From the NCBI RefSeq assembly GCF_003334255.1, contig NZ_QOWU01000021.1: a stretch of DNA of 64,000 nt; one strand, 5' to 3'. This DNA comes from Escherichia coli. GTDB lineage: Bacteria; Pseudomonadota; Gammaproteobacteria; Enterobacterales; Enterobacteriaceae. The notes under the pieces are model-generated. The model searched no databases and was not told the DNA's origin. It saw nothing but the letters and a program-made list of their open reading frames with translations. Position numbers and translations under genes: made by a program. This document shows, in pieces, positions 1 to 47,657 of the stretch (the stretch's first letter is position 1; each line of letters opens with the position of its first letter).

Positions 1-62
1 AATCGGTGGAGCTGCATGACAAAGTCATCGGGCATTATCTGAACATAAAACACTATCAATAA
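1..62 (+). CDS. 3' end of an upstream gene (partial), ending ...SVELHDKVIGHYLNIKHYQ*; by synteny probably the MtlR-like yggD, but not recognised from sequence
   Basis: Open frame from window edge to TAA at 60-62, same frame as yggC; assignment by position only. Confidence 0.35.
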   Translation, partial: SVELHDKVIGHYLNIKHYQ

Positions 63-134
63 GTTGGAGTCATTACCGGGCTGAAGATACAGGCACAGTA
101 CCAGAACGAAGAGATTGAAAATGTACATAAACCG

Positions 135-767
135 TTGCTGCACATGTTGGCGGCCTTACAGACGGTAAATCCGCAGCGGCGTACGGTGGTTTTTCTTTGC
201 GCTCCGCCGGGGACGGGTAAATCAACCCTAACCACCTTCTGGGAATATCTCGCGCAACAAGACCCGGAACTGCCCGCTATTCAGACGCTCCCGATGGATG
301 GTTTTCACCATTACAATAGCTGGCTGGATGCGCATCAATTGCGCCCCTTCAAAGGCGCATCAGAGACATTTGACGTTGCGAAACTGACGGAAAATCTGCG
401 CCAGGTCGTGGAAGGGGATTGTACGTGGCCGCAGTACGATCGACAAAAGCATGATCCTGTTGAAGATGCGTTGCACGTTACCGCACCACTCGTCATCGTC
501 GAAGGAAACTGGTTGTTACTGGATGATGAAAAGTGGCTGGAGTTGGCATCTTTCTGCGATTTTTCTATTTTTATTCATGCACCTGCTCAAATTCTGCGGG
601 AGCGCTTGATTAGTCGTAAAATTGCGGGAGGATTAACGCGGCAAGTAGCCGAAGCATTTTATGCCCGCACCGATGGCCCCAATGTCGAGCGTGTGCTGAT
701 GAATAGCCGTCAGGCCAATCTGATAGTAGAGATGACTGAAGAAGGCCGGTATCACTTCACAAGCTGA
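135..767 (+). CDS. yggC: P-loop kinase-like protein YggC (uridine kinase/PRK family)
   Basis: ORF with Walker A motif CAPPGTGKST; start uncertain (TTG at 135 or ATG at 144), no ATG/GTG between upstream in-frame stop and 135. Confidence 0.8.
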   Translation: MLHMLAALQTVNPQRRTVVFLCAPPGTGKSTLTTFWEYLAQQDPELPAIQTLPMDGFHHYNSWLDAHQLRPFKGASETFDVAKLTENLRQVVEGDCTWPQYDRQKHDPVEDALHVTAPLVIVEGNWLLLDDEKWLELASFCDFSIFIHAPAQILRERLISRKIAGGLTRQVAEAFYARTDGPNVERVLMNSRQANLIVEMTEEGRYHFTS

Positions 768-4627: not shown

Positions 4628-4642
4628 GCCAAAAGCAAAATT

Positions 4643-4741
4643 GCCTGATGCGCTACGCTTATCAGGCCTACACGTATCCTGCAATATATTGAATTTGCAG
4701 GTTTTTGTAGGCCGGATAAGGCGTTCACGCCGCATCCGGCA
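4643..4741. repeat. REP pair (BIME) in fbaA-mscS intergenic region, flanked by ~35-bp direct repeats at 4604-4638 and 4771-4805
   Basis: gcctgatgcgctacgcttatcaggcctac and inverted gtaggccggataaggcgttcacgccgcatccggca are typical REP palindromes. Confidence 0.85.
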
Positions 4742-4935
4742 TGACAAAGCGCACATTGATATCTGTCTGAGCCCCGCTCTGCGGGGATTTTTTCGCCAAA
4801 AGCAAGGTGATTCAGATGAGAAATCTGTGATCTATTTGGCAAAATTATGCTTTATTGTTTACCCTTGTCAGACTGCCCGTCATAAGGCGGCGGAGTGTAT
4901 TTCTCCATTTTGAGTCAGTTGAAAAGGAATATTGA

Positions 4936-46254: not shown

Positions 46255-47622
46255 TTAGATTGCCCAACCACCCGCGTAAAATGCGACCAGTGCGGCAGTA
46301 ATGATCACCGTACCAATATTCAGCTTTTGCCATTCGCGTGCAAAGACGCGGCCTACGACCAGTGTCACAAAGCCCAGCATAATACCGGTAACGATATTAC
46401 AAGTCAGAACGATGAACACGGCACACACCAGGCCAGCCATAGCGTCAATAAAATCATTGAAATCCAGCTTCGAGACGTTACTTAACATCAGCAAACCTAC
46501 GTACATCAGAGCGGGTGCAGTGGCGTAACCAGGGATCAAAAATGACAGCGGTGATAAAAACAGAATTAACAGGAATAACGCCCCCACTACGGTTGCGGTT
46601 AAACCTGTTTTACCCCCGGCGGCGGTTCCTGCCGCTGATTCGATATAAACCGCTGCGGGCGCTGCGCCCACCAGGCCGGAGAATATTGAACTTACTGAGT
46701 CACTGGTCAGGGCTTTGCCGCCGTTGATGATCTGGTTGTCTTTATCCAACAAATTCGCCTGACCGGCGACGGCACGGATGGTGCCAGTAGCGTCGAACAC
46801 TGCGGTCATCACCAATGCCAGTACACTCGGAAGTACAGTTGGCTGGAGTGCACCCATAATATCGAGGCTGAAAATCAGAGACTTACCATCTTCGCCAGTC
46901 AGGCTTGGCATCGCCACCAGACCGTGGTATTTCACCGCTGGGTCAAAGATTAAGCCGATGATCGAAATTGCAATAATCACCAACAAGATCCCGCCGGGTA
47001 CGCGACACTTCTCCAGGCCGAAGATGACCGCCAGCCCCAGCAAGCTCATCATCACCGGGAAGGAGGTAAACGCACCGAGCGCCACTGGCAAGCCTTCAAT
47101 CGGGTTTTTGATAACCATACCCACACCGTTAGCAGCAATCAGCAGCAGAAACAGCCCGATACCGATACCTGTACCGTGAGCGATACCCATCGGCAAATTA
47201 CGTAAGATCCAGGTACGCACACCGGTTACGGAAATGGCGGTGAAGATGACGCCCATCAGAAATACCGCGCCCAGTGCGACAGGAACGCTAATTTGTTGCC
47301 CGAGTACCAGACTGAATGCGGTAAACGCCGTCAAGGAAATCGCGCAACCAATCGCCATTGGCAAATTAGCCCATAATCCCATCAGCAACGAGCCGAAGCC
47401 CGCGACCAGACAGGTGGCAACAAACACAGCTGCGGGAGGAAAACCTGCTTTGCCCAGCATTCCCGGAACGACGATAACGGAATAAACCATGGCCAGAAAG
47501 GTCGTTAAGCCAGCCAGTACTTCCTGACGAACGGTACTGCCACGAGCGGTAATTTTAAAATAATTATCCAGCGCGCCCTGTGGCTTTGGTGCGTCCGGTG
47601 TTTGTAGGATGTCTCCAGACAT
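46255..47622 (-). CDS. ghxQ: guanine/hypoxanthine permease (NCS2 AzgA-like)
   Basis: 455-aa membrane [50 protein letters not shown]... Confidence 0.88.
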
Positions 47623-47657
47623 AATGATGTCCTCACGAGGATGTTAAAGTTTTATTA

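Follow-up and report, generated by a model that had tools for sequence, protein, structure and literature searches.

The window opens inside IS1 and continues into a yggC remnant

The DNA analysed here (the window; 64,000 nt of Escherichia coli sequence) makes up the initial 64 kb of a short-read contig broken inside the multicopy element IS1; over its first 3,767 nt that contig, QOWU01000021.1 (GCA_003334255.1), matches the window exactly, starting at position 1. Its opening 77 nt (1–77, plus strand) are the exact terminal 77 nt of the right end of an IS1A-type element rather than chromosomal backbone, and the element continues leftwards past the start of both window and contig. In megablast searches of 5,426 complete E. 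coli genomes with positions 1–800, and again with 1–400, the query divided at 77/78: positions 78–800 matched yggC, while 1–77 matched annotated IS1 transposase genes in thousands of replicons, both chromosomal and plasmid. The same 77 nt are identical to positions 692–768 of the complete 768-bp IS1A in strain CP8-3, and the IS1 right-end sequence (GGTAATGACTCCAACTTATTGATAGTG...) matched the minus strand of the window at 24–77 with 0 mismatches and had no match in 100 shuffles. On comparison of the two IS1 ends (IRL and IRR), the right terminal inverted repeat was assigned to 55–77 on the minus strand, where it reads GGTAATGACTCCAACTTATTGAT from the end inwards and terminates as ...GTCATTACC at position 77.

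The short reading frame at 3–62 (plus strand) translates into the C-terminal 19 codons of InsB or InsAB' (...SVELHDKVIGHYLNIKHYQ) plus the TAA at 60–62; it enters the right inverted repeat and ends there. A longer version of this frame on a sister contig (see below) matches PF03400 (DDE_Tnp_IS1), and the TAA is the normal insB stop, common to every IS1 copy. Read from position 3, the frame gives SVELHDKVIGHYLNIKHYQ* and then stays open as VGVITGLKIQAQYQNEEIENVHKPLLHML... until the yggC stop at 765–767. The original prediction, made from the letters of the window, had noted that this stop lies in the yggC frame, and translation bears that out. The upstream frame, however, had been taken for a neighbouring gene of yggC, and it is IS1 transposase (insB/insAB'), not fumE; the agreement between its frame and that of yggC is a coincidence with a 1-in-3 prior and is meaningless.

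Homology to yggC begins abruptly at position 78 in every alignment, so that the breakpoint lies at 77/78, immediately before codon 9 (GGG); codon 8 (AAT) is missing. IS1 is joined directly to GGGCTGAAG, whose first bases are those of codon 9, and the remnant (78–767, plus strand) comprises codons 9–237 and the stop at 765–767, with the P-loop GTGKST intact.

Other strains carry an uninterrupted fumE–yggC junction

Comparing this junction across strains, as had been proposed, resolved its origin: IS1 lies between the start and the body of the gene. In K-12-like strains, as in strain G1/2, the annotation gives intact yggC a length of 714 nt; its GTG start codon and the fumE stop overlap (GTGA; ...AAGGAATTAACGCCGTGAAAATTGAATTAACGGTGAATGGGCTGAAG...), and an AAGGA Shine-Dalgarno (SD) sequence ends 8 nt before the GTG and pairs with the anti-SD at −5.6 kcal/mol. 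Other strains thus do have a conventional start for yggC. Native yggC is presumably co-transcribed and translationally coupled with fumE. The window holds the same gene at the same locus; unlike the native arrangement, it lacks the overlapping stop and start, and with them the first 24 nt of yggC (codons 1–8, MKIELTVN), the native SD and the coupling to fumE.

Strain G1/2, which has an intact yggC, aligns with window positions 78–64000 with 4 mismatches and 0 gaps, in two gapless blocks (78–47415, 3 mismatches; 46515–64000, 1 mismatch). Colinearity begins at window position 78, equivalent to 2564 of the retrieved G1/2 locus, 24 nt downstream of the annotated GTG at 2540. Since the rest aligns without gaps, the IS1 end is the sole structural difference from G1/2 in 64 kb. 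Of the 5,426 complete E. coli genomes, 5,415 have the intact junction without interruption, as judged with a 300-nt probe that has the breakpoint at its middle, and the only genome in which the probe was split was that of strain PSS-10, an independent IS1B event described below. The window's own IS1/yggC junction was found in none of the 5,426 (megablast and probe). Strain CP8-3, which came up with 100% query coverage, was dismissed as a carrier: it has a separate IS1 insertion at the yggC 3′ end.

The same junction is found on six further contigs

Beyond the complete genomes, the identical junction, with 0 mismatches downstream, occurs on six further contigs: one from an isolate assembly (GCA_965136505.1), four from ENA metagenome assemblies and one from a Logan run assembly. 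The IS1 portion attached to the junction measures 27, 53, 53, 55, 118 and 134 nt on these sister contigs, and on all seven junction-bearing contigs (range 27–134 nt) the sequence ends inside the element. Several of these lengths seem to reflect the k-mer overlaps used in assembly: the contig with 118 nt, for instance, is named k119. The recurrence of the junction on six other contigs rules out a chimera and reveals one circulating clone; as the allele is present in several samples, it is at least tolerated.

Start codons and transcription signals at the junction

The 24 in-frame codons between the insB stop and the first canonical start (63–134) contain no ATG, GTG or TTG, which confirms the earlier observation that ATG and GTG are missing from the 72 nt after the stop and extends it to TTG. 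The first canonical in-frame codons are a TTG at 135–137 and an ATG at 144–146 (both plus strand), corresponding to codons 28 and 31 of intact YggC. SD strength was scored as the energy of the duplex that the 16S 3′ end forms with the 20 nt preceding each codon (background mean −2.35 kcal/mol); at +0.4 and +1.2 kcal/mol, respectively, against −5.6 for the native site, neither codon has an SD, in agreement with the initial reading. Clear initiation at ATG144 from a functional ribosome-binding site had been named as the outcome that would make the start unremarkable; no ribosome-binding site was found at ATG144. The sole SD-like motif upstream of the remnant is GGAG at 66–69 (plus strand, −5.9 kcal/mol), itself within the IS1 repeat, which overlaps a TTGGAG at 64–69 and precedes by 2 nt an ATT at 72–74, also inside the repeat, and by 11 nt a CTG at 81–83 (both plus strand).

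Public records disagree on where the remnant starts. By exact-sequence look-up we retrieved three products: a 231-aa protein from ATT72 (NCBI/PGAP; WP_054518531.1, 'MTGLKIQ...'), a 228-aa protein from CTG81 (other NCBI records) and a 207-aa protein from ATG144 (ENA and metagenome callers). The 210-aa product expected from TTG135 was not in the protein collection searched in this way. On the window's own contig, the gene is called at 72–767. None of the 231-, 228- and 207-aa records is flagged as a pseudogene, and one is named 'Pantothenate kinase'. This inconsistency arises because the IS1 junction sits at the contig end. The AUU start codons confirmed in E. coli are those of infC and pcnB only (10.1101/063800). 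The NCBI model of the present allele resembles these genes in beginning at ATT, but their AUU is conserved and experimentally confirmed, whereas ATT72 comes with any copy of the IS1 end and lies 2 nt from the SD-like motif. Both the PGAP start at ATT72 and the ATC start annotated in PSS-10 (below) seem to be gene models extended by homology as far as the first codon permitted after a stop, and not evidence that ribosomes initiate there.

As to transcription, a promoter and terminator consensus scan of positions 1–1100 found no sigma-70-like site at the junction. The IS1 repeat contains an outward −35, which forms a hybrid promoter only when a −10 lies at the right distance in the flanking DNA (PMC8764528, citing Prentki et al. 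1986). The passage of that article on outward promoters names no hexamer; our own candidate for a −35-like hexamer is TTGGAG at 64–69, 8 nt from the end of the element and facing yggC. Judged by eye, positions 86–93 offer at most 3/6 matches to TATAAT. The junction is thus like known IS1 hybrid promoters in having a −35-like hexamer in the repeat that faces yggC, and unlike them in having no acceptable −10 in the flank. Because the flank offers no acceptable −10 where one would be needed, activation of yggC by IS1 is not expected and, with the consensus scan empty at the junction, an IS1 hybrid promoter for yggC was dropped.

The break removes the first strand of an N-terminal hairpin

Intact YggC scores 500.9 bits against NF006742 (PRK09270.1-1, the YggC equivalog of a nucleoside/nucleotide kinase family; cut-off 402). 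The 207-aa remnant still reaches 437.3 bits, above the cut-off, yet covers profile positions 31–236 only. The P-loop GxGKS/T, DGFH, KG, EGN and R..K motifs all lie downstream of the break, as do the invariant columns (G55, K56, D82, F84, K100, G101 and others), and are retained. A Pfam scan of YggC returned sub-threshold P-loop matches only, and the nearest solved structure is PDB 3c8u, labelled fructokinase. YggC has been predicted to be a 'sugar/polyol kinase', as work in progress (PMC3223725), and our literature search on yggC turned up nothing beyond this passing functional prediction.

The N-terminus is itself conserved. Forty homologues of 35–53% identity share the consensus MxxxLxVNG....A.Y....I...F.PLL, with a conserved 'VNG' motif and with G9 and P27 present in at least 90% of them, and among the 2,632 relatives found in 1.84 billion cluster representatives (full HMMER) most of the distant ones align from query residues 1–6. 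The AlphaFold2 model of YggC (mean pLDDT 96.9) has strands at residues 2–7 and 10–15 and a helix at 18–38, all with pLDDT of at least 93; the helix leads into the P-loop strand at 44–49. In the window, the N-terminal beta-hairpin (MxxxLxVNG...), which sets this subfamily apart from its shorter relatives of 210–217 aa, has lost codons 1–8 and strand 2–7 with them. With the break at codon 9, the alignment and the AlphaFold2 model together indicate that the first hairpin strand is deleted. Natural relatives that have no such hairpin (NF006743, NF006744 and NF006746, 210–217 aa; PDB 3c8u, 208 aa) suggest that truncated YggC might still fold and work.

Two further IS1 events at yggC

Strain PSS-10 (NZ_AP027685.1) carries a 768-bp IS1B at 1769–2536 of the retrieved locus that adjoins the yggC 5′ end. 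Its junction, ...GCATCACC|AATGGGCTGAAG, lies 3 nt upstream of the window's breakpoint. Directly on the other side of IS1B lies tkt, the genes between tkt and yggC, including yggP, glpX and fumE, being deleted, and PGAP places the yggC start at an ATC within the IS1 repeat. The two alleles are alike in that IS1 adjoins the yggC 5′ end at points at most 3 nt apart and that a near-cognate start is annotated in the repeat. They differ in origin and structure: the PSS-10 event is independent and involves IS1B in the opposite orientation, with the left repeat facing yggC; its junction precedes AAT whereas that of the window precedes GGG; and it is PSS-10 that has the tkt–yggC region deleted.

A third independent IS1 in yggC was seen in CP8-3_Sichuan (NZ_CP053736.1), where an IS1A at 2185–2952, near the 3′ end of the gene, is flanked by a clean 9-bp target duplication, CACTTCACA; the yggC product of this strain is annotated as 735 nt, extended into the IS1 end.

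Known RNAs and repeats elsewhere in the window

Three known RNAs expected for the region were located: SIB RNA, the antitoxin of ibsC (17778–17928), 6S RNA (ssrS; 18577–18760) and the REP-derived naRNA4/CssrE (32271–32348). In addition, a strongly folding palindromic repeat of 125 nt (RNA fold z = −5.2) is present in two copies of ~87% identity, one in the fbaA–mscS spacer (4630–4754) and one in the yqeB–arcC spacer (62176–62301). It holds REP-type sequences (GCCGGATAAGGCG...CGCATCCGGC) and is an ordinary BIME/REP element; part of the copy at 4630–4754 is ES036/CssrF in Rfam.

Origin and likely effect of the allele

We consider it very probable that the window shows, from the edge of a contig, an IS1 that has inserted into yggC at its ninth codon in a single lineage of E. 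coli, and that the allele left behind is most likely null or strongly weakened. Two other origins of the junction can be put far behind this reading. An assembly chimera at the contig end, with yggC intact in the organism, would fit the position of the window, whose first letter is also the first of the contig and lies 77 nt inside a multicopy repeat, the kind of place where graph assemblers break; we give it very little credence, as the same junction, with different lengths of IS1 attached, stands on contigs from different isolates, metagenomes and assemblers, and the products encoded in several independent annotation records could not arise without it. Still less credible is a strain-specific nonsense mutation that split a longer ancestral frame. 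The original prediction had offered a strain-specific stop as one option, beside a TTG start and coupling, and of its options this came closest, in that the feature is indeed specific to a lineage; the stop is in frame with yggC, as this reading requires, but no mutation made it, for the sequence upstream of 78 is IS1, with no similarity to the fumE–yggC region, and every IS1 copy has the same TAA. The third competitor concerns the far side of the element, which would not be fumE–yggC' if IS1 had mediated a deletion or an inversion. This we hold to be unlikely, although clearly less so than the former two. PSS-10 shows that such an event has happened 3 nt away, with yggP, glpX and fumE among the genes lost between tkt and yggC; moreover, no left junction was found, and the window and its related contigs all end inside IS1. 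Nothing direct speaks against it, other than that simple insertion is the commoner result of IS1 transposition. A scan of JGI metagenome contigs for a left junction (yggC codons 1–8, a gap of 0–12 nt and the IS1 left repeat) had no match and is uninformative, because the right junction was equally unmatched there, the clone being missing from that collection. Our default reading is that of a simple IS1 insertion, which would have duplicated the 9 bp GGGCTGAAG; positions 78–86 (plus strand) would be the right copy of this target-site duplication, and the predicted left junction would read ...ACGGTGAATGGGCTGAAG|GGTGATGCTGCCAAC..., that is, yggC codons 1–11 followed by the IS1 left end, or, written otherwise, ...AATGGGCTGAAG|GGTGATGCTGCC....

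Whether the remnant still yields protein depends on what can start it. The window opens with the end of the transposase frame, its TAA and the right inverted repeat; yggC codon 9 comes directly after these, and the native signals (GTG and AAGGA SD) lie beyond IS1 or are lost. A working gene with an IS1-supplied start, in which GGAG serves ATT72 (231 aa) or CTG81 (228 aa), perhaps by reinitiation after insB, is in our judgement improbable. It gains from the anti-SD pairing of GGAG, as strong as that of the native SD, from NCBI records that hold exactly these two products, from the like annotation of PSS-10 and from the proven AUU starts of infC and pcnB (10.1101/063800). Yet AUU and CUG initiate at only ~1–2% of AUG (10.1101/063800), and the spacing is poor for ATT and long for CTG. 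Few ribosomes would reach the insB stop: synthesis of InsAB' depends on a rare programmed frameshift, and IS1 transposases in the retrieved records are annotated as 'programmed frameshift'. The lack of a promoter-like site, the polarity classically associated with IS1 insertions, and the loss of the first hairpin strand with the conserved V7–N8 weigh against this start as well. Rather more doubtful still is internal initiation at TTG135, the first option of the original prediction, or at ATG144, to give a YggC that is shorter at its N-terminus (210 or 207 aa). No other canonical start comes before these two in the open frame, and ENA and metagenome callers chose the latter; the 207-aa product keeps the P-loop and stays above the NF006742 cut-off, and natural relatives of 208–217 aa start at a point that corresponds roughly to residue 20. 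On the other side, both codons are without an SD, no promoter is evident, and the product would have lost the entire hairpin, P27, which is almost invariant, and helix 18–38 over its first half. Read-through of the insB stop to give an InsB–YggC fusion was considered and rejected.

A null or strongly weakened allele thus seems the best account of the remnant, because it has no evident promoter and no canonical start backed by an SD, and its first strand is lost; against this counts that NCBI records annotate it as an intact 231-aa protein, not as a pseudogene. At most, a trace of N-terminally altered YggC may be made, from ATT72 or CTG81 via GGAG, or from TTG135 or ATG144. The puzzle of how yggC is initiated disappears once the start of the window is recognised as an IS1 end. 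The event is of a known kind, insertional disruption by IS1, and the allele is already in public records. It resembles classical IS1 insertion mutations in its exact right end, the abrupt break in the gene and its standing as a rare, lineage-specific allele of a conserved locus. Classical IS1 mutations comprise a 768-bp element, a 9-bp duplication and polarity on downstream expression; here, these would follow from the one end that is visible.

For annotation, the case counsels caution in two respects. When a contig or window opens inside a repeat, its first gene may seem to have an exotic start, and automated pipelines have entered this one remnant into public records as three 'intact' proteins, of 231, 228 and 207 aa; the first two have near-cognate starts, that of the 231-aa protein lying in the IS1 repeat. 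For the biology of E. coli, the finding is minor: a further case of IS1 knocking out a gene that is non-essential and whose function is unknown, in one clone. There is a faint prospect that the IS1 right end acts as a portable initiation cassette (GGAG plus ATT or CTG, maybe by reinitiation) and sustains a functional, remodelled YggC at a low level; if so, the lineage would carry a re-wired yggC, not a dead gene. On the far more probable reading of a disrupted yggC, the lineage would provide a natural loss-of-function background for this gene beside the near-isogenic, intact strain G1/2.
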